Virus record (IMG/VR): IMGVR_UViG_3300002026_000256
Location: 1-64,000 of that record
Length of the DNA stretch: 64,000 nucleotides
Source: a virus
Lineage: Duplodnaviria; Caudoviricetes
Strand: one strand, 5' to 3'
Below are positions 2,803 to 42,898 of this stretch, in pieces. The translations under genes and the position numbers were made by a program. Under the pieces are notes generated by a model. The model saw nothing but the letters and a program-made list of their open reading frames with translations, had not been told where the DNA came from and did no database searches. Each line of letters begins with the position of its first letter. The stretch's first letter is position 1.

Positions 2803-3048
2803 ATGGAAATAAAGACTTCGTTAGATTTTAATGATGTAGAGTACGAAATACTGCGAACATTAGTGAAAATTAGGAATCCTAGTAATCTAATGGAGGCGGC
2901 TAAACTGCTCAAAAACATTAGAGAAATGAATACGAAGTTATCACAATTAGAAGTTGAGGATCGTAGGCTACACGGCAGAAACAGGCACAATGTAGCAGAG
3001 CAAGTGTTGCTGATAAACAACGAACTTGAGAATTTACATATATTGTAA
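2803..3048 (+). CDS. Hypothetical protein
   Basis: 81-aa ORF filling the gap, divergent from the neck gene. Confidence 0.5.
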   Translation: MEIKTSLDFNDVEYEILRTLVKIRNPSNLMEAAKLLKNIREMNTKLSQLEVEDRRLHGRNRHNVAEQVLLINNELENLHIL

Positions 3049-3061
3049 CAAAGGATGTAGT

Positions 3062-4249
3062 ATGGTAACCGTTGCCGGAATCAAGATTAAAGCTAAAACT
3101 AAAAAAGAACCAACTATGAGCCGCCACGGCGCCCTTGGGGAGCCCGTGTGGGATGCTGATAGAGCAGTGTGTTTTGAAGATGCAGAATTTGATCACTATC
3201 TTCGTAAAAGTCTTAACTTTTACAACTACAACAATACACAAAAAGATTTGAAAAAGTATGTAGTGGCTTGGTTGAAAGAAAACACTAAATGGACTAAAGA
3301 GCAGCATGATGCGTATGCACTGACTACTCCGGAGCAAACACCAATGACATTGTGCAGCCTAGTTAAGGCTACGACAATGGGAATGCCAATGCGAGAAAAG
3401 CATAAGGCTAGCTTAATGGCAGAGCTTGAAAAAATTGTTGCTCCTATTGTTGAAGAACAACGTGCTGAACGTGCTAGAATCGCCGCTGCACTCAAAACAA
3501 CTAAGGGCCCGGTAGTGCATGCTCCTACTATTCAAGAGCGTCTTGCAGAGAAAACGGCAGAGGTAATTGGTGAGCTGGAAGGTCAAGTTGATAACGTATT
3601 CCATAATTTGCCAATTGAGTTTAAAATTTACGATTTTCTAACATCTCGTGGCGTAGCACAATCGCAAATTGGTAAAATTCGCGCAGTTTTTCAAAAGCAA
3701 ATTGACGAAATTACTGAGTTTGTCGCAGGCACTGACAAGCAACTTAACGAGGGATACTCCTTCCTTAAGAAAGCAGACTTGAAACGAATTGGTGACTTTT
3801 ATGTTAAGCTAATGGCTGATTTGGAAAGTTATACAGCCGTTAAGAAGGCAGTTAAGAAGGCAAAAGTTAAAAAACCAGTTGCTAAAGACAAGTTGGTAGC
3901 CAAAGTCAAATACATGAAGGAAGACAAGTCGCTTAAACTTGTTAGTATTAACCCAGTAAACATTGTTGGTGCTAAGGAACTGTGGTGTTTTGATACTAAG
4001 ACTCGCAAACTAATTCACTACGTTGCTGATCAGTATGCAATGGAATTGACAGTTAAAGGCACGACAATAATTGGATTTGATACTAGTGCAAGTGTGTGTA
4101 AAACACTGCGGAAGCCAGATGAGCAGCTCAAAGAGCTAATGAAAGCTGGTAAAGTGGCATTGCGCACATTTATGAAGGATATTAGGGCAGTAGAAGTTAG
4201 AGCGTCAGGCCGAATTAATGAGCATCAGTTGCTGCTTAAGGTAGGTTAG
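3062..4249 (+). CDS. Hypothetical phage protein (Lys-rich C-terminus)
   Basis: Long ORF; ATG at 3062 follows AAGGA, preferred to the track start at 3026. Confidence 0.7.
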   Translation: MVTVAGIKIKAKTKKEPTMSRHGALGEPVWDADRAVCFEDAEFDHYLRKSLNFYNYNNTQKDLKKYVVAWLKENTKWTKEQHDAYALTTPEQTPMTLCSLVKATTMGMPMREKHKASLMAELEKIVAPIVEEQRAERARIAAALKTTKGPVVHAPTIQERLAEKTAEVIGELEGQVDNVFHNLPIEFKIYDFLTSRGVAQSQIGKIRAVFQKQIDEITEFVAGTDKQLNEGYSFLKKADLKRIGDFYVKLMADLESYTAVKKAVKKAKVKKPVAKDKLVAKVKYMKEDKSLKLVSINPVNIVGAKELWCFDTKTRKLIHYVADQYAMELTVKGTTIIGFDTSASVCKTLRKPDEQLKELMKAGKVALRTFMKDIRAVEVRASGRINEHQLLLKVG

Positions 4250-4295: not shown

Positions 4296-5072
4296 ATGCC
4301 AACAGTACCAGATTATCCAGAATTACCAACTCTCAGCGATCAAAAGAAAGATGTAATTGATTACATACGGTTACGTCTTGGCGATCAAATGGTTGACGTT
4401 GAACTAGACAAAGAACACTATGACATGGCAATTAAGCAAGCACTGCTCCGTTATCGGCAACGTGCTGAACGGGCAGAAGAAGAATCATATTGCTTCCTGG
4501 ACTTAGTTGCAGACACACAGGAATACATTCTACCACGTGAGATAATGTTCGTTAAAGCAATTCATCGTCGTGGGTTGGGTGGGTTAACAAGTGCAACACA
4601 ATTTGAGCCATTTAGTTCTGGGTTCCTAAACACCTACATGTTAGTTGCAGGTCGTGTGGGCGGGCTAGTTGGGTACGAATTGTTTGTTGACTATCAAAAG
4701 TTAACTATGAAAATGTTTGGTGGGTACATTACGTTTACATTTAACCCAGCGACAAAAAAATTGGTAGTTAATCGCCGCATGCCAAGCGAGCGTGAAACTG
4801 TATTGCTGCAAGTGTATAATTACAAGCCAGATCAAGTAATTTTAAACGATAGTCGCGCATTTCCGTGGATTCAAGACTATGCGTATAGTGTTGCAAAGCA
4901 CAGTTTGGGTGAAGCAAGAGAAAAATTTGCTACTATTGCTGGGCCACAAGGCGGCACTTCGTTAAACGGCGCTGCACTAAAGGCTGAGGCAAAAGAGGAA
5001 ATGGTTGCTCTTATGGAAGATTTAGGCAAATACGTTGACAGCAGCACACCGTTAACTTGGGTAGTTGGGTAA
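4296..5072 (+). CDS. Neck / head-tail adaptor protein, gp13-like
   Basis: DYIRLRLGD.MVDVELD.EHY..AI..AL..Y N-terminus and C-terminal GPQGGTSLNG..LKAEA.EE motif; ATG at 4296 follows the late promoter. Confidence 0.65.
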   Translation: MPTVPDYPELPTLSDQKKDVIDYIRLRLGDQMVDVELDKEHYDMAIKQALLRYRQRAERAEEESYCFLDLVADTQEYILPREIMFVKAIHRRGLGGLTSATQFEPFSSGFLNTYMLVAGRVGGLVGYELFVDYQKLTMKMFGGYITFTFNPATKKLVVNRRMPSERETVLLQVYNYKPDQVILNDSRAFPWIQDYAYSVAKHSLGEAREKFATIAGPQGGTSLNGAALKAEAKEEMVALMEDLGKYVDSSTPLTWVVG

Positions 5073-28483: not shown

Positions 28484-29185
28484 ATGCTACTTACAGAGTT
28501 TTTCACATCAGATTTAGACGAAGGGATTCACGATCCTAATATTTTTAAAGCTGTTTTCATGGCTGGCCCTCCGGGCGCTGGCAAAAATACAGTTATATCG
28601 CATCTTGGCTTAACTAGTTCAGGTCTAAAACTTCAAGACATTGATCAAGTTAAAGCGCATCTTGCAAAAATAAAGCCAAATGCTGATTATACAGATAGCT
28701 TAACTACAACGATTAGACGGCAAAATCAGTATCAAACTAGCATGCTAGGGTTAACAATTAATACAACTGGTAGAGACTCAGAAAACTTAATGCAGTTAAA
28801 CAAACAACTTAAAAACGCTGGATATGATACTTTTTTGTTGTTTGTTGATGTAAATTATGATATTGCGTTAACACGAATCAACGATCGTGAAAGAACTGCA
28901 ACGAACCCAGCAGACAAACGCAAAGTTGATATGGACTATTTTGTTGACGCTTATGACTCAAGCAAGAAAAATATGGATTTTTATGCACTTATGTTTGGTG
29001 CACAATTTTCATTAGTAACAAACAATTGGGCGACTGATGATGGTCAAAGTCAAAAGGAATATGCTCACTCAGTGCGGATGGCATATAAAAAGATCAATCG
29101 ATTTTTGCATAAACCACTAACCCCCATTGCGCAAAGAATAGTTGACAGCTCTGCTAGCGATAGAAATACTACTTATAGAAGTTAA
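28484..29185 (+). CDS. P-loop kinase (Zeta toxin / AAA_33-like)
   Basis: MAGPPGAGKN Walker A, LTINTTG, FVDVNYDIAL.RI..R lid. Confidence 0.75.
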   Translation: MLLTEFFTSDLDEGIHDPNIFKAVFMAGPPGAGKNTVISHLGLTSSGLKLQDIDQVKAHLAKIKPNADYTDSLTTTIRRQNQYQTSMLGLTINTTGRDSENLMQLNKQLKNAGYDTFLLFVDVNYDIALTRINDRERTATNPADKRKVDMDYFVDAYDSSKKNMDFYALMFGAQFSLVTNNWATDDGQSQKEYAHSVRMAYKKINRFLHKPLTPIAQRIVDSSASDRNTTYRS

Positions 29186-31049: not shown

Positions 31050-31222
31050 GTTGACTTTTCCTGAAAGGTGTGTATAATCAGTATTTAGCGCAAGTGATGT
31101 TACAACAAAACAACATTTCGGTGAAAAAAGTGTAGACAAATTACAGAAGTAGTGTTACACTTGGTATAAATAACTTTACGAAGCAAAATTTTTTGTTTCG
31201 GATAAATAAATTTAGTCAGTAG

Positions 31223-31251
31223 TTGACAGCAAGAATAAATAATGTTATACT
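31223..31251 (+). promoter_or_regulatory. sigma70 promoter with extended -10
   Basis: TTGACA-17-TATACT preceded by TGn. Confidence 0.85.
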
Positions 31252-31299
31252 TGATGCTTAGGTTAGTAATTTTTAAGAAAGAATTTAGAGCGTAACAAA

Positions 31300-31458
31300 A
31301 TGAAATCGTCCGTACATAGTTTAACCCATACCTTTAGTTTAGTGCCGTTGTGGCTCCAGACTACTGCGATTATGGCGGCTGGGTCGGAGATTATAACACC
31401 ACGTTGCGGTTCAAATTATGATAAATCGTTGGGGTTTGATAAAGGAAGGGTTGTTTAG
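31300..31458 (+). CDS. Putative attenuator leader peptide (52 aa)
   Basis: MKSSVHSLTHTFSLVPLWLQTTAIMAAGSEIITPRCGSNYDKSLGFDKGRVV*; lies between the promoter and a terminator; contains all 20 amino acids. Confidence 0.55.
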   Translation: MKSSVHSLTHTFSLVPLWLQTTAIMAAGSEIITPRCGSNYDKSLGFDKGRVV

Positions 31459-31485
31459 CACTTAGCAAACAACTACAAATTTAAC

Positions 31486-31521
31486 AAACCCTAGGACCAA
31501 AACCCTAGGGTTTTTTGTTTT
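31486..31521 (+). terminator. Intrinsic terminator with alternative antiterminator pairing
   Basis: AAACCCTAGG-ACCAAAAC-CCTAGGGTTT then TTTGTTTT; the 5' arm can instead pair with TTGGGGTTTG (31429-31438). Confidence 0.85.
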
Positions 31522-31550
31522 GTAAATGATAAAAATAAATTAAAAAGTAG

Positions 31551-31579
31551 TTGACAAATAGATAAATTAATGTTAAAAT
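31551..31579 (+). promoter_or_regulatory. sigma70 promoter
   Basis: TTGACA-17-TAAAAT with TGn. Confidence 0.75.
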
Positions 31580-31594
31580 AGAAAGACAGGAATT

Positions 31595-31714
31595 ATGAAA
31601 CGCAATGCAGTTGCTAAAGACTTAAGAACTCCTAAGTACCGCATGCGAGTTGTATGTGCTAAAAAGGGCAAAGGCTCTTGGAGGCGAGTTGACAAATATA
31701 GAGAAAGGATTTAA
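31595..31714 (+). CDS. arfA: ArfA-like alternative ribosome-rescue peptide (39 aa)
   Basis: MKRNAVAKDLRTPKYRMRVVCAKKGKGSWRRVDKYRERI aligns by eye to E. coli ArfA [34 protein letters not shown] AGGA. Confidence 0.65.
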   Translation: MKRNAVAKDLRTPKYRMRVVCAKKGKGSWRRVDKYRERI

Positions 31715-31768: not shown

Positions 31769-32024
31769 TATGCCCAGGAAACGAGGTCCTGCTAGCGCAC
31801 TATAAACATGTTAGAAACGGGCGTCCTTGGGGATGAAGCATCTTGTGTGGTGTGAAAAAACCAGGAGTATTAAAGCATTTTGCTTGCTAGTAACTGAGTT
31901 GCAAACTTTGAATTTGTATCCACTAACGCAATGCAACAACTGAGTCAGCACCGGCGCTCTATGCGTCTTCGTGTTTTCCACTGTCAAAGTGCTTTAATAC
32001 ACACATTGGTTAACTCTAGTGTGT
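31769..32024 (+). ncRNA. Structured RNA ahead of the first tRNA
   Basis: ATGCCC/GGGCGT multistem; 16-bp stem 31867-31882/31985-32000 with a G.U pair; no ORF. Confidence 0.5.
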
Positions 32025-32034
32025 AACAAAATTT

Positions 32035-32110
32035 GGGCTGATAGTGATACTGGGGTACACGATGGTTTTGCAATCCATAGATAGGAGTTCGATCCTCCTT
32101 CGGTCCACCA
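32035..32110 (+). tRNA. tRNA-Ala(TGC)
   Basis: G3.U70, loop TTTGCAA, CCA. Confidence 0.85.
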
Positions 32111-32115
32111 AATTT

Positions 32116-32199
32116 GGAGATGTGGGTGAGTGGCTGAAACCGGAAGTCTGTAAAACTTCTCTTAATCGCGCGTTGGTTCGAATCCAACCGTCTCCACCA
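32116..32199 (+). tRNA. tRNA-Tyr(GTA)
   Basis: GAAGT-CTGTAAA-ACTTC, CCA. Confidence 0.93.
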
Positions 32200-32204
32200 A
32201 ATAC

Positions 32205-32398
32205 TAAGATGTTAGTGAGTAAGATAGTAGACGAAAACCGAGCCGTGCCTTCCGTGCGGTCTTCACAGTGCGTGGACACAATGAGAAACGTAAGGTGACG
32301 AACGATGAGCAAAGTCGGTCCAGTAGGGTATGAAAAGTAACATTGGCGGTGACGTTGCCGCAGGACAGAAGCTCTAGGGCGCCGCGTAATCCTGCAAG
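32205..32398 (+). ncRNA. Unidentified structured RNA in a tRNA slot (some RNase P-like words)
   Basis: About 190 nt between two tRNAs; stems GCAGGA/TCCTGC, GGCGG/TTGCC, ACCG/CGGT. Confidence 0.4.
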
Positions 32399-32403
32399 AA
32401 TTT

Positions 32404-32478
32404 GGGCTGCTAGTATAGGGGGAATTACCACTGCCTTGCACGTAGTAAATCGGAGTTCGAGTCTCCGGCGGTCCACCA
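32404..32478 (+). tRNA. tRNA-Ala(TGC), second copy
   Basis: G3.U70, ACTGC-CTTGCAC-GTAGT, CCA. Confidence 0.9.
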
Positions 32479-32485
32479 AATTAAT

Positions 32486-32560
32486 GCGGCGTGTAGTGTA
32501 ATGGCAACACACTTCTCTGTGAAAGAAGTATCGATGGTCCGATTCCATCCCGTCCGCCCA
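32486..32560 (+). tRNA. tRNA-His(GTG)
   Basis: CTTCT-CTGTGAA-AGAAG, T-loop TCCGATT, CCA. Confidence 0.85.
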
Positions 32561-32566
32561 GTTTTT

Positions 32567-32642
32567 GCGGTAGTAGCATAGCGGCTAATGCACCTCCCTG
32601 TCTAGGAGACCACCGTGGGTTCGAGTCCCATTTACCGCGCCA
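32567..32642 (+). tRNA. tRNA-Asp(GTC)
   Basis: CTCC-CTGTCTA-GGAG, G73, CCA. Confidence 0.9.
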
Positions 32643-32647
32643 GTTTT

Positions 32648-32676
32648 AGGATCAGTTCAGCAAAGTTGATCCTGTT
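32648..32676 (+). ncRNA. TTCAGCAA stem cassette 1 (minimal)
   Basis: AGGATCAG-TTCAGCAAAG-TTGATCCTGTT. Confidence 0.6.
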
Positions 32677-32683
32677 ATATTTT

Positions 32684-32766
32684 GGAGATGGAAAGCTGAT
32701 GGCTTCAGCACCGAGTCTGTAAAACTCGTCCTTCGGGGAGTGGATCGAAACCACACGTCTCCACCA
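32684..32766 (+). tRNA. tRNA-Tyr(GTA), divergent second copy
   Basis: CGAGT-CTGTAAA-ACTCG, T-loop ATCGAAA, CCA. Confidence 0.85.
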
Positions 32767-32778
32767 AATTTATTAAAT

Positions 32779-32870
32779 GCGAGCGAGACTTGGAAGTCAG
32801 AGAGGCCTTATAAACCTTTTAGCGCCAGATTAGCGTTCTTGAGAAGGTTCGATCCCTTCCGCTCGTACCA
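32779..32870 (+). tRNA. tRNA-Ile(TAT)-like with long variable region
   Basis: GCGAGCG/CGCTCGT acceptor, loop CTTATAA closed by C.A, GAAGG-TTCGATC-CCTTC, ACCA. Confidence 0.7.
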
Positions 32871-32938
32871 AATTCTGGTTACCAGTATTAAGACGGTGAC
32901 TAGCGCCAGCAGACTACCTCGTGGCTGGCATAAATTAT

Positions 32939-33016
32939 TCCGCAGAACGCAAGTATGGACATGGGCGTGGCTGTTAACCACTGTTTAACTCGGATCGTTA
33001 CCGAGGTGCGGAGCCA
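32939..33016 (+). tRNA. tRNA-Asn(GTT), atypical
   Basis: GTGG-CTGTTAA-CCAC, T-loop ATCGTTA, GCCA. Confidence 0.75.
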
Positions 33017-33025
33017 AGTTAGTAT

Positions 33026-33060
33026 AGGGATATGGTGTAATTGGGAGAACGACAGTTTTG
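33026..33060 (+). pseudogene. Orphan 5' half of a tRNA (Trp-like)
   Basis: AGGGATA-TGGTGTAATTGGGAGAAC-GACAGT then breaks off at the endonuclease late promoter. Confidence 0.55.
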
Positions 33061-33073
33061 TATAAATAAAGTT

Positions 33074-33694
33074 ATGCACTATATAATTTATAAAACCTCA
33101 AACATTTTGACTGGTCAATACTATATCGGATGCCATCAAACTTTGAATTTAACAGATGGATATTTAGGGTCTGGGAAATATTTAAAACGTGCTATAAAAA
33201 AGTACGGGGCATCAACTTTTAAATTTGAAATATTGCATGTAGCATCTTCAAAAGAAGAAATGTTTAATATAGAACGTTCGATAGTAAACGAAGAGTTAAT
33301 AACCGATCCATTGTCGTACAACCTAAAGATAGGTGGTAGTGGAGGAAATCCAGGTATTGTTGGGGCATTCAAAGGAAGACAACACTCCGCTGAAACTAAA
33401 GAAAAACAGCGCCAAGCGTCACTTCAACAAGTTACGTCAGATGAAAAACGTCGCAAATTGTCTGAAAACAACGCAATGCGCAATGATCCAGCAATTAGAA
33501 AGAAAGTTGCGCTGTCATTGACAGGCAGAGTTTGCTCAGACGAACATCGTAGTAGAGTAGCAGAAGCTAATCTAGGAAAAATACTAATTAATAACGGCAC
33601 GGTTGCAAAACGCATACCGAAAGACGAGTTAGCAAAATATGAAAATACAGAGTGGTCCAAAGGTGGACTGCCTCGAAAGATAATATCTCGATAG
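33074..33694 (+). mobile_element. Free-standing GIY-YIG homing endonuclease (Seg-like, NUMOD3)
   Basis: YIIYKTSN..QYYIG.H..YLGSG..LKRAIKKYG..F..E..YNL..GG; FKGRQHSAETKEK; stop codon lies inside tRNA-Trp. Confidence 0.9.
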
Positions 33695-33758
33695 TGTAAT
33701 GGCAACACGTTGTTCTCCAAAAGCAACATTCTAGGTTCGAGTCCTAGTCGGGATGCCA
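33685..33758 (+). tRNA. tRNA-Trp(CCA)
   Basis: TTGTT-CTCCAAA-AGCAA, GGTTCGAGTCC, GCCA. Confidence 0.9.
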
Positions 33759-33765
33759 AGTTAAT

Positions 33766-33840
33766 GCGTGTAAGATGTTAATGGTTGCATGATTGGCTTC
33801 CACCCAGTATGAGCAGGTTCGATTCCTGTTACTCGCACCA
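33766..33840 (+). tRNA. tRNA-Gly(TCC)
   Basis: ATTGG-CTTCCAC-CCAGT, CCA. Confidence 0.88.
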
Positions 33841-33880
33841 AACAAGCATGTCTTTGCAGTGGCTAGCATACTGCATAATT

Positions 33881-33954
33881 GCCCCTTTAGTTAAAAAGTA
33901 TAACACTGTGCTGATAACGCAGAGTCGGAGGAGCGTTACCTCCCGGGGGTACCA
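33881..33954 (+). tRNA. tRNA-Ile(GAT), atypical T-loop
   Basis: CTGTG-CTGATAA-CGCAG, T-loop AGCGTTA, CCA. Confidence 0.8.
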
Positions 33955-33962
33955 AGTTTTTT

Positions 33963-34021
33963 AGGTTCCGTTCAGCAAATTCTAAAAATTCAACTTTTAA
34001 TTGAAAAATAAGGAACCTGTT
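33963..34021 (+). ncRNA. TTCAGCAA stem cassette 2 carrying a Lys(UUU) anticodon stem-loop mimic
   Basis: AGGTTCC..GGAACCTGTT enclosing TTCAA-CTTTTAA-TTGAA. Confidence 0.65.
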
Positions 34022-34027
34022 ATCTAT

Positions 34028-34102
34028 ATCCCGTGACGCAGCTAGAGTGGCGACCAGGCCTTCACCCTGGTGAGAGGGGAGCGTAACCCCTACGGGATAC
34101 CA
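34028..34102 (+). tRNA. tRNA-Glu(TTC)-like, atypical (C33, T-loop AGCGTAA)
   Basis: ATCCCGT/ACGGGAT, ACCAGG-CCTTCAC-CCTGGT, ACCA. Confidence 0.65.
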
Positions 34103-34108
34103 ATTTTA

Positions 34109-34181
34109 GCCTTTGTCGTATAACTGGTGTGTACGTGTGCCTGAAGAGCACGAGGAGACGGTTCGATTCCGTACGAAGGTA
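34109..34181 (+). tRNA. tRNA-Phe(GAA), lacking encoded CCA and fused to a Ser remnant
   Basis: TGTGC-CTGAAGA-GCACG, GGTTCGATTCC, ends GAAGGTA. Confidence 0.8.
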
Positions 34182-34241
34182 GTCTTGAAAACTGTCGGTC
34201 CCGAAAGGGGCCCGTGAGTTCGAATCTCACCGTCCCCGCCA
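34181..34241 (+). pseudogene. 3' part of tRNA-Ser(TGA), 5' half missing
   Basis: AGT-CTTGAAA-ACT, long variable arm, GTGAG-TTCGAAT-CTCAC, GCCA. Confidence 0.8.
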
Positions 34242-34248
34242 ACAATAT

Positions 34249-34322
34249 CTTCTGCAAGCATTAAGGTGATGCAGTAGGCTCTTACCCTACAGAACACGGT
34301 CCAATACCGTGGCAGAGGACCA
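34249..34322 (+). tRNA. tRNA-Lys(CTT)
   Basis: GTAGG-CTCTTAC-CCTAC, T-loop TCCAATA, CCA. Confidence 0.8.
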
Positions 34323-34328
34323 AGTTTT

Positions 34329-34429
34329 TGTAGTGCAGTCGGTTAGATTGTGGTAAAGGCGATGCGAGTAGAAGTTCTACTGATAAATATCGAAGCGCAT
34401 CTTAATGATAATGTGTGCAGCCTACTACA
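34329..34429 (+). ncRNA. Unidentified structured RNA in a tRNA slot
   Basis: TGTAGT/ACTACA closing stem, GATGCG/CGCATC, AGTAG/CTACT. Confidence 0.45.
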
Positions 34430-34441
34430 GAAAAGTTTTAT

Positions 34442-34515
34442 GCTTCTAGAGCCAGTTGGATAGGCAGCGGATTGCAAACCCGTGTAACAGAGTTCGATTC
34501 TCTGTAGGAGTTCCA
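34442..34515 (+). tRNA. tRNA-Cys(GCA)
   Basis: Loop TTGCAAA, U73 discriminator, CCA. Confidence 0.85.
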
Positions 34516-34524
34516 GATAAACTA

Positions 34525-34602
34525 GCCCTTGTAGGCAAATTGGTAAAGTCGGCTGTCTCAAAAGCAGTTATTTTGTGAGTTCGAATCTCACCAAGGGCAC
34601 CA
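34525..34602 (+). tRNA. tRNA-Leu(CAA), short variable arm
   Basis: GCTGT-CTCAAAA-GCAGT, CCA. Confidence 0.88.
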
Positions 34603-34643
34603 ATTTATTTCTTGCATTGAGCGAGAACGTGTAAATAGTTATA

Positions 34644-34717
34644 CTCGGTATGGTGAAATGGTATCATTTATGCTTTGGGAGCATATGGCGTAGGTTCGAT
34701 TCCTGCTACCGAGACCA
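34644..34717 (+). tRNA. tRNA-Pro(TGG)
   Basis: TATGC-TTTGGGA-GCATA, CCA. Confidence 0.92.
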
Positions 34718-34724
34718 AGTTTTT

Positions 34725-34806
34725 AGGATAGCTTCAGCAACCCATTACAATTGGCCGTCAGTTTCGATGTTCTGACATTAAACAAAAAGTAGACAGCTAT
34801 CCTGTT
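34725..34806 (+). ncRNA. TTCAGCAA stem cassette 3
   Basis: AGGATAGC..GCTATCCTGTT enclosing GTCAG-TTTCGATGTT-CTGAC. Confidence 0.6.
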
Positions 34807-34813
34807 GCATTTT

Positions 34814-34890
34814 CAGTGTGTGGTGACAAGTGGACGTCGACCTGTTTTGGAAGCAGGAATATGCCGGTTCGAGGCCGGCCACACTGACCA
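34814..34890 (+). tRNA. tRNA-Pro(TGG), divergent second copy
   Basis: CCTGT-TTTGGAA-GCAGG, T-loop TTCGAGG, CCA. Confidence 0.85.
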
Positions 34891-34898
34891 AGTTTTAT

Positions 34899-34973
34899 TC
34901 CCTAGTAGCTCAGCGGTAGAGTAGTTGGCTGTTAACCAATTGGTCCGTGGTTCGATCCCACGCTGGGGAGCCA
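34899..34973 (+). tRNA. tRNA-Asn(GTT), canonical
   Basis: TAGCTCAGCGGTAGAG D-arm, CTGTTAA loop, GCCA. Confidence 0.95.
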
Positions 34974-35007
34974 AGTTTTAAATTAAGAAAAATAATAACA
35001 AACAAAT

Positions 35008-35082
35008 AGTGATATCGTTCAAATAGTAGGACCTGAGTCTCATAAGCTCAAGAAGAAGGGGCAGTACCTTCTATCACTACCA
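35008..35082 (+). tRNA. tRNA with CAT anticodon (Met or Ile2), atypical T-loop
   Basis: TGAGT-CTCATAA-GCTCA, T-loop GGCAGTA, CCA. Confidence 0.75.
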
Positions 35083-35089
35083 AATAAAT

Positions 35090-35165
35090 GCGTGTATAGC
35101 TCAGCTGGTAGAGCAGTTCGTTGCCAACGAACAGGTCGCAGGTTCGAACCCTGTTGCCCGCACCA
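35090..35165 (+). tRNA. tRNA-Gly(GCC)
   Basis: GTTCG-TTGCCAA-CGAAC, CCA. Confidence 0.93.
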
Positions 35166-35172
35166 AATTTTA

Positions 35173-35247
35173 GCTCTTGAAGCATTGACGGCGATGTACC
35201 GGTTTTGTAATCCGGATAGTGGAGTTCAAGTCTTCACAGGAGCACCA
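35173..35247 (+). tRNA. tRNA-Thr(TGT)
   Basis: CCGG(T)-TTTGTAA-(T)CCGG, CCA. Confidence 0.82.
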
Positions 35248-35255
35248 ACACATAT

Positions 35256-35326
35256 TGCGGGGATGAAGGTTCTCGGCCAGTCTCATAAGCTCGGTCTTCC
35301 AAGTTCGATTCTTGGCCCCGCTTCCA
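35256..35326 (+). tRNA. tRNA-Met(CAT), initiator-like, reduced D-arm
   Basis: Unpaired 1:72, GCGGGG/CCCCGC, loop CTCATAA, CCA. Confidence 0.7.
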
Positions 35327-35336
35327 AATTTCAAAT

Positions 35337-35410
35337 GGGGTTGTAATTCAATGGTAGAATATTCGGCTTTTAACCGATCAACGAGGGTCCGATTCCCTCC
35401 AGCCCTACCA
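35337..35410 (+). tRNA. tRNA-Lys(TTT)
   Basis: TTCGG-CTTTTAA-CCGAT, T-loop TCCGATT, CCA. Confidence 0.9.
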
Positions 35411-35416
35411 ACACAT

Positions 35417-35491
35417 GCTGCTATCGACTATCGGTAAGGTCGCTACCCTTTCAAGGTGGAGAGCGGGGTTCAACTCCCCGTAGCAGTACCA
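35417..35491 (+). tRNA. tRNA-Glu(TTC)
   Basis: CTACC-CTTTCAA-GGTGG, CCA. Confidence 0.92.
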
Positions 35492-35566
35492 GCTCTATTA
35501 GTATAGTGGTTACTACAACTGTTTCGTAAGCAGTGATCAGGCGTTCGATTCGTCTATGGAGCACCA
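35492..35566 (+). tRNA. tRNA-Thr(CGT)
   Basis: ACTGT-TTCGTAA-GCAGT; no spacer after the preceding CCA. Confidence 0.88.
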
Positions 35567-35580
35567 AGAATAAATACAAT

Positions 35581-36231
35581 ATGAGCAACACTATATTTGA
35601 ACGCATTGATTCAAGAACTGATTTTGTAAATACCTGGCTATTTGAAATGCCAGAGGGAATTGGTAAATTTGAACTAGTTGATGCAGTTATTTACTCAATT
35701 AAAGATAGAATTAAATCTGGTGCAACAGTCATTGATTTGCCATCTGGATTACGAAAAATTGAAGGTACGCAAGTAGTTGACTATTGGTATGAGAAAGCAG
35801 GAGATATTGTTCTTGGTGCAGAGTTTGAAAAACGTGCACAGGGATTAGTAGTTACAATGATAGGTAAAGCAAATAAAGGCAGACCGCCGTTTGCTTCCGA
35901 CTTGTATAACGCAGTGCTAGCAGATAGGAAAACTTCTGGTGGTATTGATGCAATACGAATTTTAAGTGACCAAGCACTTAGCGATGAAGGAATTAAAATA
36001 TGGGAGCGTCTGCTTAGTCAAGGCCATCATATTTCAATTTACGATGCTAGCGAGCCAGGTAAAACTTTTTCTGAGATTACGACAGTTGCGGATTTGCACA
36101 AATATTTTCAAGACGATAACAGAAATTATCGCCGTTGGCAATATGTAATTTCAGAACAAGCTTCAAATGGTGAAGTGCGCTCATTTTTTAATACTAGAAG
36201 AATGCGAGAGCTAATTCCTGGTATGTTATAA
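35581..36231 (+). CDS. Hypothetical protein embedded in the tRNA array (possible GNAT-like fold)
   Basis: ATG at 35581 after TAAATA; ILSDQALSDEGIKIWERL. Confidence 0.7.
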   Translation: MSNTIFERIDSRTDFVNTWLFEMPEGIGKFELVDAVIYSIKDRIKSGATVIDLPSGLRKIEGTQVVDYWYEKAGDIVLGAEFEKRAQGLVVTMIGKANKGRPPFASDLYNAVLADRKTSGGIDAIRILSDQALSDEGIKIWERLLSQGHHISIYDASEPGKTFSEITTVADLHKYFQDDNRNYRRWQYVISEQASNGEVRSFFNTRRMRELIPGML

Positions 36232-36240
36232 TAGTTTTAA

Positions 36241-36331
36241 GGAGAGCGGGCAGGCCGGTAATGCAGCACCCTGCTAAGGTGTAGAGTCGTGATGAGCGGC
36301 TCATAGGGTTCGATTCCCTAGCTCTCCGCCA
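36241..36331 (+). tRNA. tRNA-Ser(GCT)
   Basis: GCACC-CTGCTAA-GGTGT, long variable arm, GCCA. Confidence 0.92.
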
Positions 36332-36337
36332 ATTTAC

Positions 36338-36413
36338 TGGGGGTTTGTCATTTGGTAATGACACTACGCTTTGACCGTAGGAAAGTCGGGTCCGATTCCC
36401 ACACCCTCTGCCA
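36338..36413 (+). tRNA. tRNA-Gln(TTG)
   Basis: CTACG-CTTTGAC-CGTAG, T-loop TCCGATT, GCCA. Confidence 0.82.
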
Positions 36414-36621
36414 ATGCTAACAATTTATCGACAACGACAAAGAGCATAACCAAGTATTGTACGAGCTAGGTCTACTAGACGATGATGACGATTGGAATCT
36501 GTTTTGCAAGATGCAACGCGAGCAGATGGAAAATGATCCTGACTCTGAAACTTGGCACAAAGCAATGGGAACAGTTCCACAGGAAATACCCACTACTGGG
36601 TGGTGGATCAAAGCAAAATGA
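36414..36621 (+). pseudogene. Small ORF with apparent frameshift
   Basis: MLTIYR.. stops early; a second frame reads DKEHNQVLYELGLLDDDDDW..PTTGWWIKAK*. Confidence 0.4.
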
Positions 36622-36854
36622 ATTTAACTGAACAACTCGTTGAGTTAGCAGAGCAAATTGAAATGGGTGACCCAATTGATTGGGGCATGCTTAGTATTAA
36701 TGAACACGATGCATACAAGTTAATGGCAGCAGGCGTATTAGACAACTATTTGGGCATGGATCCAGACTGTCGTGATATGATGTTGCTTGCTACAGTAGTT
36801 AAGCTAACTGTAGAGAATTTTGCACTTAACTTAAAGTTGATGCAACAAAAATAA
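36618..36854 (+). CDS. Hypothetical protein
   Basis: MNLTEQLVELAEQIEMGDPIDWGML..; ATGA-coupled; ends immediately before tRNA-Leu. Confidence 0.7.
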   Translation: MNLTEQLVELAEQIEMGDPIDWGMLSINEHDAYKLMAAGVLDNYLGMDPDCRDMMLLATVVKLTVENFALNLKLMQQK

Positions 36855-36931
36855 GCGGATGTAGACAAATTGGTAAAGTCAGCGGTCTTAGAAGCCGTTA
36901 TCTGAGAGTTCGAGTCTCTCCTTCCGCACCA
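36855..36931 (+). tRNA. tRNA-Leu(TAG), short variable arm
   Basis: GCGGT-CTTAGAA-GCCGT, CCA. Confidence 0.9.
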
Positions 36932-36936
36932 AATTA

Positions 36937-37019
36937 GTGGAATTGGCTAAGACAAATTGGCACAGTCGCCAGATTTAAAACCTGGGCTTTTATGGGTTCG
37001 AGTCCCATATTCCACACCA
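36937..37019 (+). tRNA. tRNA-Leu(TAA)-like, atypical
   Basis: GTGGAAT/ATTCCAC, CCAG(A)-TTTAAAA-(C)CTGG, short variable arm, CCA. Confidence 0.65.
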
Positions 37020-37025
37020 AATAAA

Positions 37026-37100
37026 ATCGCCTTCGTATAGTGGATAATACACAAGCCTGCGAAGCTTGAAACACAGGTCCGATTCCTGTAGGCGGTACCA
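37026..37100 (+). tRNA. tRNA-Arg(GCG)
   Basis: CAAGC-CTGCGAA-GCTTG, CCA. Confidence 0.85.
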
Positions 37101-37107
37101 CTCACAA

Positions 37108-37181
37108 GCCTCGGTAGTTTAATGGTAGAACATTGCTCCTACAAAGCAAATGCGACGGTTCAATTCCGTAACGAGGTACCA
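37108..37181 (+). tRNA. tRNA-Val(TAC)
   Basis: TTGCT-CCTACAA-AGCAA, CCA. Confidence 0.85.
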
Positions 37182-37186
37182 ATTAT

Positions 37187-37265
37187 GCGCCGGTATGCCG
37201 CTTGTCTTCGAAACAAGAGAAAGCTAACTGGATACATGCACGTTCGAATCGTGTTCGGCGCACCA
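37187..37265 (+). tRNA. tRNA-Arg(TCG)-like, D-armless with long variable region
   Basis: GCGCCGG/TCGGCGC, 7-nt linker, CTTGT-CTTCGAA-ACAAG, T arm, ACCA. Confidence 0.65.
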
Positions 37266-37271
37266 AAATAA

Positions 37272-37345
37272 GCTCTCGTATGTAAATGGTATACTAACTC
37301 TTTGGTAAGGAGTTGTCCCAAGTTCGATTCTTGGCTAGAGCACCA
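37272..37345 (+). tRNA. tRNA-Thr(GGT)
   Basis: ACTCT-TTGGTAA-GGAGT, CCA. Confidence 0.88.
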
Positions 37346-37350
37346 CATAA

Positions 37351-37425
37351 CTCGCTATCGTATAGTGGAAAATACAGAAGTTTCCTAAACTTTAAACGGT
37401 CGTTCGATTCGACCTAGCGTGACCA
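37351..37425 (+). tRNA. tRNA-Arg(CCT)
   Basis: GAAGT-TTCCTAA-ACTTT, CCA. Confidence 0.85.
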
Positions 37426-39279: not shown

Positions 39280-39364
39280 AAGGCAATAGCAAGTAATGGC
39301 AAGGTGGTAGGTCATCCAAGTAATTTTGGTTTTGCAGTCGAAGGTTCGAATCCTTCTTGCCTTT
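39280..39364 (+). pseudogene. tRNA-like element, anticodon undetermined, no CCA
   Basis: AAGGCAA/TTGCCTT acceptor-like stem and GAAGG-TTCGAAT-CCTTC T arm. Confidence 0.45.
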
Positions 39365-42814: not shown

Positions 42815-42898
42815 GCGAGTGTGGAGGAACGGTAGACTCAGAAGACTTAAAAATCTTCCGCTTTATGCGTGTCGGTTCGAATCCGACCACTCGCACCA
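42815..42898 (+). tRNA. tRNA-Leu(TAA) with an 8-nt anticodon loop
   Basis: GAAGA-CTTAAAAA-TCTTC, variable arm, GGTTCGAATCC, CCA. Confidence 0.8.

Follow-up and report, generated by a model that had tools for sequence, protein, structure and literature searches.

A probable ribosome-mediated attenuator with a leader sampling all 20 amino acids, upstream of arfA and a tRNA island in a jumbo-phage genome

This analysis of a 64,000-nt stretch of viral DNA (positions 1 to 64,000 of the IMG/VR record IMGVR_UViG_3300002026_000256, hereafter the window) indicated that the region 31223-31521 is probably a ribosome-mediated transcription attenuator, with a leader that samples the decoding of all 20 amino acids. 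A promoter, a short leader ORF and alternative antiterminator and terminator folds precede arfA and a tRNA island, and the parts, their alternative folds, their spacing and the composition of the leaders are conserved in relatives. The source record is a 74.5-kb virus contig estimated to be 21% complete, and the window is therefore a fragment of a jumbo phage genome. The sequencing runs with matching DNA were microbial-mat metagenomes.

Results

Organization of the element and of the downstream genes

The element and the genes behind it comprise the following features, all on the + strand.

31223..31251, +: promoter P2 of the leader transcript (-35 at 31223-28, -10 at 31246-51, TG before the -10)
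31300..31458, +: leader ORF, 52 codons plus TAG, all 20 amino acids
31429..31438, +: antiterminator 5' arm, in codons 44-47 of the leader, paired with 31485-94 in minimum-energy folds
31449..31474, +: inner hairpin in the antiterminator loop, spanning the stop codon, not conserved
31485..31494, +: antiterminator 3' arm, overlapping 9 of the 10 bases of the terminator 5' arm
31486..31525, +: intrinsic terminator (arms 31486-95 and 31504-13, loop 31496-503, T-run thereafter)
31551..31579, +: promoter P3, downstream of the terminator, 11 of 12 consensus matches
31595..31714, +: arfA, encoding a 39-aa homologue of alternative ribosome-rescue factor A (Pfam and PDB alignment)
31785..31835, +: two-hairpin RNA-like block 3' of arfA (pair conservation among relatives)
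32035..37425, +: tRNA island, presumed distal target of readthrough (tRNA gene finding and Rfam)

Promoter P2 (TTGACA-17-TATACT with an upstream TG, 11 of 12 consensus matches) aligns with promoters in the related contigs L002 and L193. Two further tandem promoter-like sites lie 5' of it, at 31051-31078 and 31133-31161; the latter, separated from P2 by about 60 nt, is kept in both contigs. Close behind P2, as in leader-peptide attenuators, comes a short ORF with a putative ribosome-binding site. Its 52 codons comprise 35 distinct sense codons (hand count), and the twentieth amino-acid type is reached at residue 41, three codons before the antiterminator arm begins at codon 44. As a small control, the hand count was extended to 15 further ORFs (46-100 aa) of the same region, none of which contained all 20 amino acids. 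Codon runs, the clustered regulatory codons of leader-peptide attenuators, are absent from the window leader. An intrinsic terminator, with 10 pairs (5 of them G-C) and an 8-nt loop, separates the leader from the downstream genes, as expected of an attenuator.

Most of these parts had been named in a preliminary description of the region. P2 and the promoter at 31551 were indeed present, each with 11 of 12 matches, recounting of the ORF gave the same 52 codons, 20 amino acids and 35 codons, and the 10-bp terminator was located at 31486-31513. Folding of the whole leader and of its 3' part likewise returned the pairing of 31429-38 with 31485-94 in the minimum-energy fold. By contrast, the hairpin 31450-56/31467-73, which had been described as competing with this pairing, exists but forms within the loop of the antiterminator and is no competitor of it; its pairing is moreover absent from L002. 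The leader had also been placed at the head of the tRNA island: tRNA genes do lie downstream, but the first gene 3' of the terminator is arfA.

The arfA product scored 29.6 bits with Pfam PF03889, above the cut-off of 25.5, and aligned to residues 14-50, in the ribosome-bound core, of E. coli ArfA (PDB 5U4I chain w, E 5e-6), an alignment that takes in the K-K-G-K-G-S stretch. The phage gene has its own stop codon after 39 codons and does not yield a non-stop mRNA of the E. coli type. The RNA-like block behind it is common to the window, L002, L193, L004 and L005, and 5 of its 10 predicted pairs are retained through changes on both sides. One hairpin carries an invariant A-A-C-G-A-G loop; in the second stem 4 of 5 pairs covary, and the invariant loop contains U-A-A-A-C-A-U-G. 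The block had no Rfam match, and the small ORFs overlapping it do not keep their frame among the relatives compared. A search of viral contigs with its 17-nt motif gave 110 matches, close to chance expectation, and the nine jumbo-phage records among them were without arfA.

The tRNA island, from 32035 on, holds about 30 tRNA genes, a complete or nearly complete set for the 20 amino acids. Rfam alone detected Ile-GAT, a CAT-anticodon tRNA, Gln-TTG and a second Leu-TAA, whose anticodons were read by hand. Odd tRNA-like sequences were also seen at 37186-37262, 39280-39364 and 42815-42898: one has no clear D arm and a C-U-U-C-G-A-A loop, another an atypical anticodon arm, and the third was given a four-base anticodon by ARAGORN. 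On the other side of the element, the ORF 28484-29185 encodes a Zeta-toxin/P-loop kinase domain (Pfam PF06414, E 2e-11) and adjoins a tRNA-Leu driven by a promoter and a methyltransferase-like ORF that is syntenic in L002.

Promoter P3 sits in a 60-nt stretch that is missing from L002, where the alignment has a gap. As P3 bypasses the window terminator, transcription there has a constitutive level on which the switch can at most build, modulating expression and not gating it. Similar post-terminator promoters were found in L004, L005, L278, L360 and perhaps L194, so that in these lineages, as in the window, transcription of arfA and of the tRNA genes does not depend on readthrough. In L002, L193 and the Ralstonia phage RsoM2USA, arfA follows some 20-25 nt past the terminator, and this gap contains no promoter.

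Relatives with the same layout

Used as a query, the leader peptide retrieved one close relative (L002 among viral contigs, P0002 in the protein database). The ArfA protein was then taken as a handle for further relatives, with at least 497 matches in viral contigs and at least 507 in metagenomes. The nearest of these homologues share the organization of the window. The order promoter, leader ORF, antiterminator-terminator, arfA and tRNA genes was found in L002, L193/L195, L004, L005, L194, L278, L360 and RsoM2USA, the last of these being a cultured carrier; the L360 lineage (leader P0008) was added by a profile search. The check proposed in the preliminary description, a search of tRNA-rich phages for leader-ORF/terminator layouts that are conserved while the peptide varies and the antiterminator is maintained, thus had a positive outcome in eight further lineages. 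A purine-rich, Shine-Dalgarno-like tract, modest in each case, precedes the ATG by 3-13 nt in all ten units, the two of RsoM2USA included.

Among cultured phages, tblastn with the window ArfA matched two records. One match was labelled as a hypothetical protein; in the other record, RsoM2USA, arfA is unannotated and an ORF on the opposite strand was called instead. A DNA search of cultured phages with the region found nothing, and the neighbouring 399-aa protein, used as a query, retrieved no related loci. The AT-rich metagenome matches to ArfA (L197-L202) were set aside, arfA lying there behind a protein gene with no leader. No comparable leader was found in L281 and L329, and no comparable unit at the tRNA-Pro locus examined in Xanthomonas phage XacN1.

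Amino-acid composition of the leaders

The leaders of the closer clade are as follows.

Window leader: 31300-31455, 52 aa
L002 leader: 3001-3159, 53 aa
L193 leader: 2231-2419, 63 aa
L004 leader: 2722-2838, 39 aa
L005 leader: 2617-2715, 33 aa
L194 leader: 902-1012, 37 aa
L278 leader: 2233-2340, 36 aa
L360 leader (P0008): 34 aa

Sampling of all 20 amino acids, claimed at the outset for the window, holds for every one of these eight leaders (hand count on the translations), while RsoM2USA splits the set over two leaders. The short leaders show only 16-25% identity to that of L004, and residues present once (Cys, His, Lys, Phe, Arg) occupy differing positions, as if a loss in one spot had been made good elsewhere. 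The probability of finding all 20 amino acids by chance was bounded by P <= (1 - 0.95^(n-1))^19, which relies on the negative association of multinomial counts and on uniform frequencies, the most chance-friendly assumption. For the five short leaders (33-39 aa) this bound was 0.017, 0.021, 0.032, 0.038 and 0.054, and about 0.002 at 33 aa with realistic Trp, Cys and His frequencies; as the leaders are related, these values are not simply to be multiplied. Amino-acid counts and probabilities were calculated by hand. An alignment of seven leaders also revealed a weakly conserved motif, W-L ... G-x-x-Y, which could mean a role for the peptide itself.

Two complementary leaders in RsoM2USA

The cultured phage RsoM2USA carries two units. 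The leader of unit A (P0011) has 25 aa of 11 types; behind it come arfA and tRNAs for Pro, Cys, Glu, Tyr, Leu, Trp, Ser, His and Val. The leader contains all nine of these types, and each of its codons, two Thr codons excepted, has a cognate phage tRNA. Unit B has a homologous promoter of its own, an antiterminator and a terminator; its leader (P0010) has 37 aa of 13 types, among which Asn, Ala, Phe and Gln are abundant. Immediately behind the unit lie tRNAs for Met, Ile, Asn, Asn, Gln, Lys, Arg and Phe, with tRNAs for Ala, Val, Lys, Asp and Gly farther downstream, together with those for Pro and Thr, which leader B does not contain. Leader B thus holds 11 of the 13 downstream types, and the tRNAs for Ala, Asp and Gly were predicted from the leader before they were found. 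The two leaders share four types (Met, Val, Leu, Glu), and their union comprises all 20. Hypergeometric odds were 3e-4 for block A and 0.02 for block B, with block limits that were set post hoc.

These observations support the view that the leaders of RsoM2USA sample the amino acids whose tRNAs lie downstream. The window, with an all-20 leader before a near-complete tRNA set, fits this view; since that set is nearly complete, matching of leader and tRNAs at the codon level has no power there. A strict leader-to-tRNA matching fails in the complete phage G010, the source of L005, where an all-20 leader accompanies about 14-15 tRNA genes.

Alternative folds of the leader RNA

Nascent RNA was modelled as each unit up to the terminator 3' arm, that arm being excluded. 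In all ten units, this RNA folded into an antiterminator hairpin that pairs the end of the leader, or its stop codon, with the 5' arm of the terminator. Predicted energies ranged from -13 to -26 kcal/mol and z-scores from -2.65 to -5.5, the latter value being that of the window, with L360 apart at -1.3. Deletion of the antiterminator 5' arm turned all ten units into terminators (z -3.5 to -5.0; -20.3 kcal/mol and z -4.8 in the window). The antiterminator thus has its own 5' arm at the leader end and shares terminator 5'-arm bases in every unit. The arm sequences are unrelated between clades, while the topology is constant: in the window clade a G-G-G-U-U core lies inside the last codons, in the short clade the arms begin at or just past the UAG stop, and those of RsoM2USA differ again. 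The stop codon lies within the antiterminator 5' arm or stem in L004, L005, L194, L278 and both units of RsoM2USA; in L360 the arm starts two bases past the stop.

Counted by hand from the first base of the stop codon, the terminator stem ends at a distance of 53-63 nt in all ten units, in spite of ORF lengths of 25 to 63 codons. The overlap between antiterminator and terminator is complete in the window and amounts to 3-5 nt or more in the short clade. Intrinsic termination requires closure of the stem base adjoining the U-tract, and for this reason sequestering no more than the basal G-C pairs of this stem, as in the short clade, could suffice there. At equilibrium, the complete leader folds as the terminator and not as the antiterminator in L002, L004, L005, L194, L278 and L360, so that switching in these six units would have to be kinetic. 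Formal covariation analysis of the window clade gave one compensatory pair (U-A to C-G), which with three sequences is not significant (162 of 500 shuffles reach it). No T-box or other known Rfam leader family matched 31223-31521 at E values up to 1.

Discussion

From the layout and the folds, we infer that the leader is translated and that termination depends on the position of the ribosome. In the mechanism we propose, RNA polymerase starting at P2 would transcribe the 52-codon leader, and a ribosome moving at full speed would stand at the last codons or the stop while the terminator is being made, thereby occupying or separating the 5' arm at 31429-38. With this arm blocked, the terminator at 31486-31513 would form and the transcript would end. 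A ribosome delayed in codons 1 to about 41, or never loaded, would instead leave the arm free to pair with 31485-94; this pairing would take up the 5' arm of the terminator, and the polymerase would continue into arfA, the RNA-like block and the tRNA island. No anti-antiterminator is evident, and an untranslated leader would accordingly be expected to read through.

Because a stall anywhere in the leader would free the arm, any shortage of a charged tRNA, or a general block of translation, would raise the expression of arfA and of the tRNAs, while ample decoding capacity would lower it. On balance, we lean towards the broader reading that, in this clade of jumbo phages, the element is a universal sensor of decoding capacity, with slow decoding or a block imposed by host defences raising arfA and tRNA transcription. 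This reading covers both the single all-20 leader and the pair of RsoM2USA, which divides the 20 amino acids largely by tRNA block. The natural trigger may be uncharged tRNA or the action of anticodon nucleases; it could be provided by the codon bias of the host early in infection, by defences that cleave tRNAs or by starvation for amino acids. Such an output makes sense, a rescue factor and tRNAs being supplied when decoding falters and economy prevailing otherwise.

Other explanations were weighed against this attenuator. The region could be a free-standing early mini-gene cassette similar to the PeSL cassettes of T4-like phages, with a peptide that has its own job, a terminator that does no more than close the unit, and pairing and composition of no regulatory meaning. 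Such a cassette (early promoter, small ORF, stem-loop) fits the layout, the region is indeed a chain of strong promoters each with a short unit, five or six lineages have a promoter behind the terminator, and the weak peptide motif is in line with a function of the peptide. Amino-acid composition, spacing and alternative pairing are, however, not features of this class. It would leave unaccounted for the presence of all 20 amino acids in eight of eight leaders, down to 33-39 aa and with rare residues shifting position, the complementary leaders of RsoM2USA and their match to their tRNA blocks, and the constant distance from stop to terminator with the stop codon inside the antiterminator arm. 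The short promoter-free gap before arfA in L002, L193 and RsoM2USA also argues against a free-standing unit, and we regard this explanation as unlikely. Still more improbable is a non-coding small RNA gene, with a promoter, a transcript of about 260 nt, a terminator and an ORF that is not translated. A promoter-plus-terminator layout is typical of such genes, the fold of the whole transcript has a z-score of -2.4, and the window and L002 share two nearly identical stretches of 20-27 nt. Yet the ORF is retained in ten of ten units despite nucleotide divergence beyond recognition, and among the window, L002 and L193 its frame is kept across at least five indels with net lengths in multiples of three. 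In addition, the helices predicted within the body of the ORF are not conserved in L002, and Rfam returned no match; we therefore hold a small RNA gene to be very improbable.

A further possibility is that the attenuator is real and senses another input, either the dwell time at the stop codon (through release factor or amber suppression) or a nascent-peptide arrest. TAG, usually the rarest stop codon, ends 8 of the 10 leaders (hand count), the stop lies in the antiterminator arm or stem in six units, and the downstream gene encodes a homologue of E. coli ArfA, which works through release factor RF2. A tRNA with the CTA anticodon (amber suppressor) is moreover carried by L360 and by RsoM2USA (PMC8504454). 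For peptide arrest, the weak conservation of W-L ... G-x-x-Y can be put forward. Sensing of the stop codon, however, explains neither the all-20 composition nor the complementary leaders of RsoM2USA, most of the TAG stops derive from one homologous arm and are not independent, and no CTA-anticodon tRNA was found in the window. We regard an input of this kind as unlikely, stop-codon sensing being nonetheless a serious alternative, and sampling of amino-acid decoding remains the preferred reading.

The proposed attenuator can be compared with several known systems. Those of ilvGMEDA, ilvBN and thr also have a translated short leader, a terminator and an exclusive antiterminator between which the position of the ribosome decides, and a response to more than one amino acid. 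Their leaders, however, contain runs of codons for the two or three amino acids that are the end products, and the genes they control encode biosynthetic enzymes, whereas in the phage leader all 20 amino acids occur, most of them once or a few times, with arfA and tRNA genes downstream; furthermore, no counterpart of their anti-antiterminator (region 1) is evident in the phage element. In the trp and his attenuators (trpL, hisL; modelled in PMC1183508), a ribosome at the leader stop likewise prevents the antiterminator, and the distance from stop to terminator is of a similar order. These leaders differ in sensing a single amino acid via tandem codons and in showing super-attenuation when untranslated. 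The pheST attenuator and T-box riboswitches similarly tie components of translation to the supply of tRNA or amino acids by a choice between terminator and antiterminator, but pheST senses Phe only, and a T-box binds one uncharged tRNA directly, with no need for translation. In E. coli, the output of arfA is also linked to the state of translation, through RNase III cleavage and tmRNA tagging (PMC8012679, PMC10107115). That control is post-transcriptional and acts through a non-stop mRNA, unlike the phage arfA, which would stand behind a transcriptional switch.

To our knowledge, the timing and dosing of phage tRNA genes are largely unexplained, as is the reason why many phages carry arfA. Full-text searches of the literature, and the RsoM2USA paper, yielded no account of phage tRNA genes or arfA being controlled by a leader peptide. 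If the proposed mechanism holds, it would bring both under attenuation control, and the all-20 leader would represent a new design principle for attenuation, in which breadth takes precedence over specificity. It would also connect host defences that cleave or deplete tRNAs with ribosome rescue and the tRNA islands of phages, and would offer synthetic biology a compact natural sensor of global translation capacity. The availability of RsoM2USA in culture makes the proposal directly testable, and its leaders A and B predict distinct responses to starvation for different amino acids.

Two minor observations concern arfA in other contigs. In the viral contig L014, which is unrelated, arfA (3001-3072) is followed 1.4 kb downstream by a tmRNA gene (4526-4893), so that both ribosome-rescue routes occur in one phage. 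Behind arfA in L278 (2628-2700) and L360 (2895-3010), a consensus promoter is followed by a very short ORF, of about 12 codons in L278, and by a structured stretch, which may constitute a further small regulatory unit.
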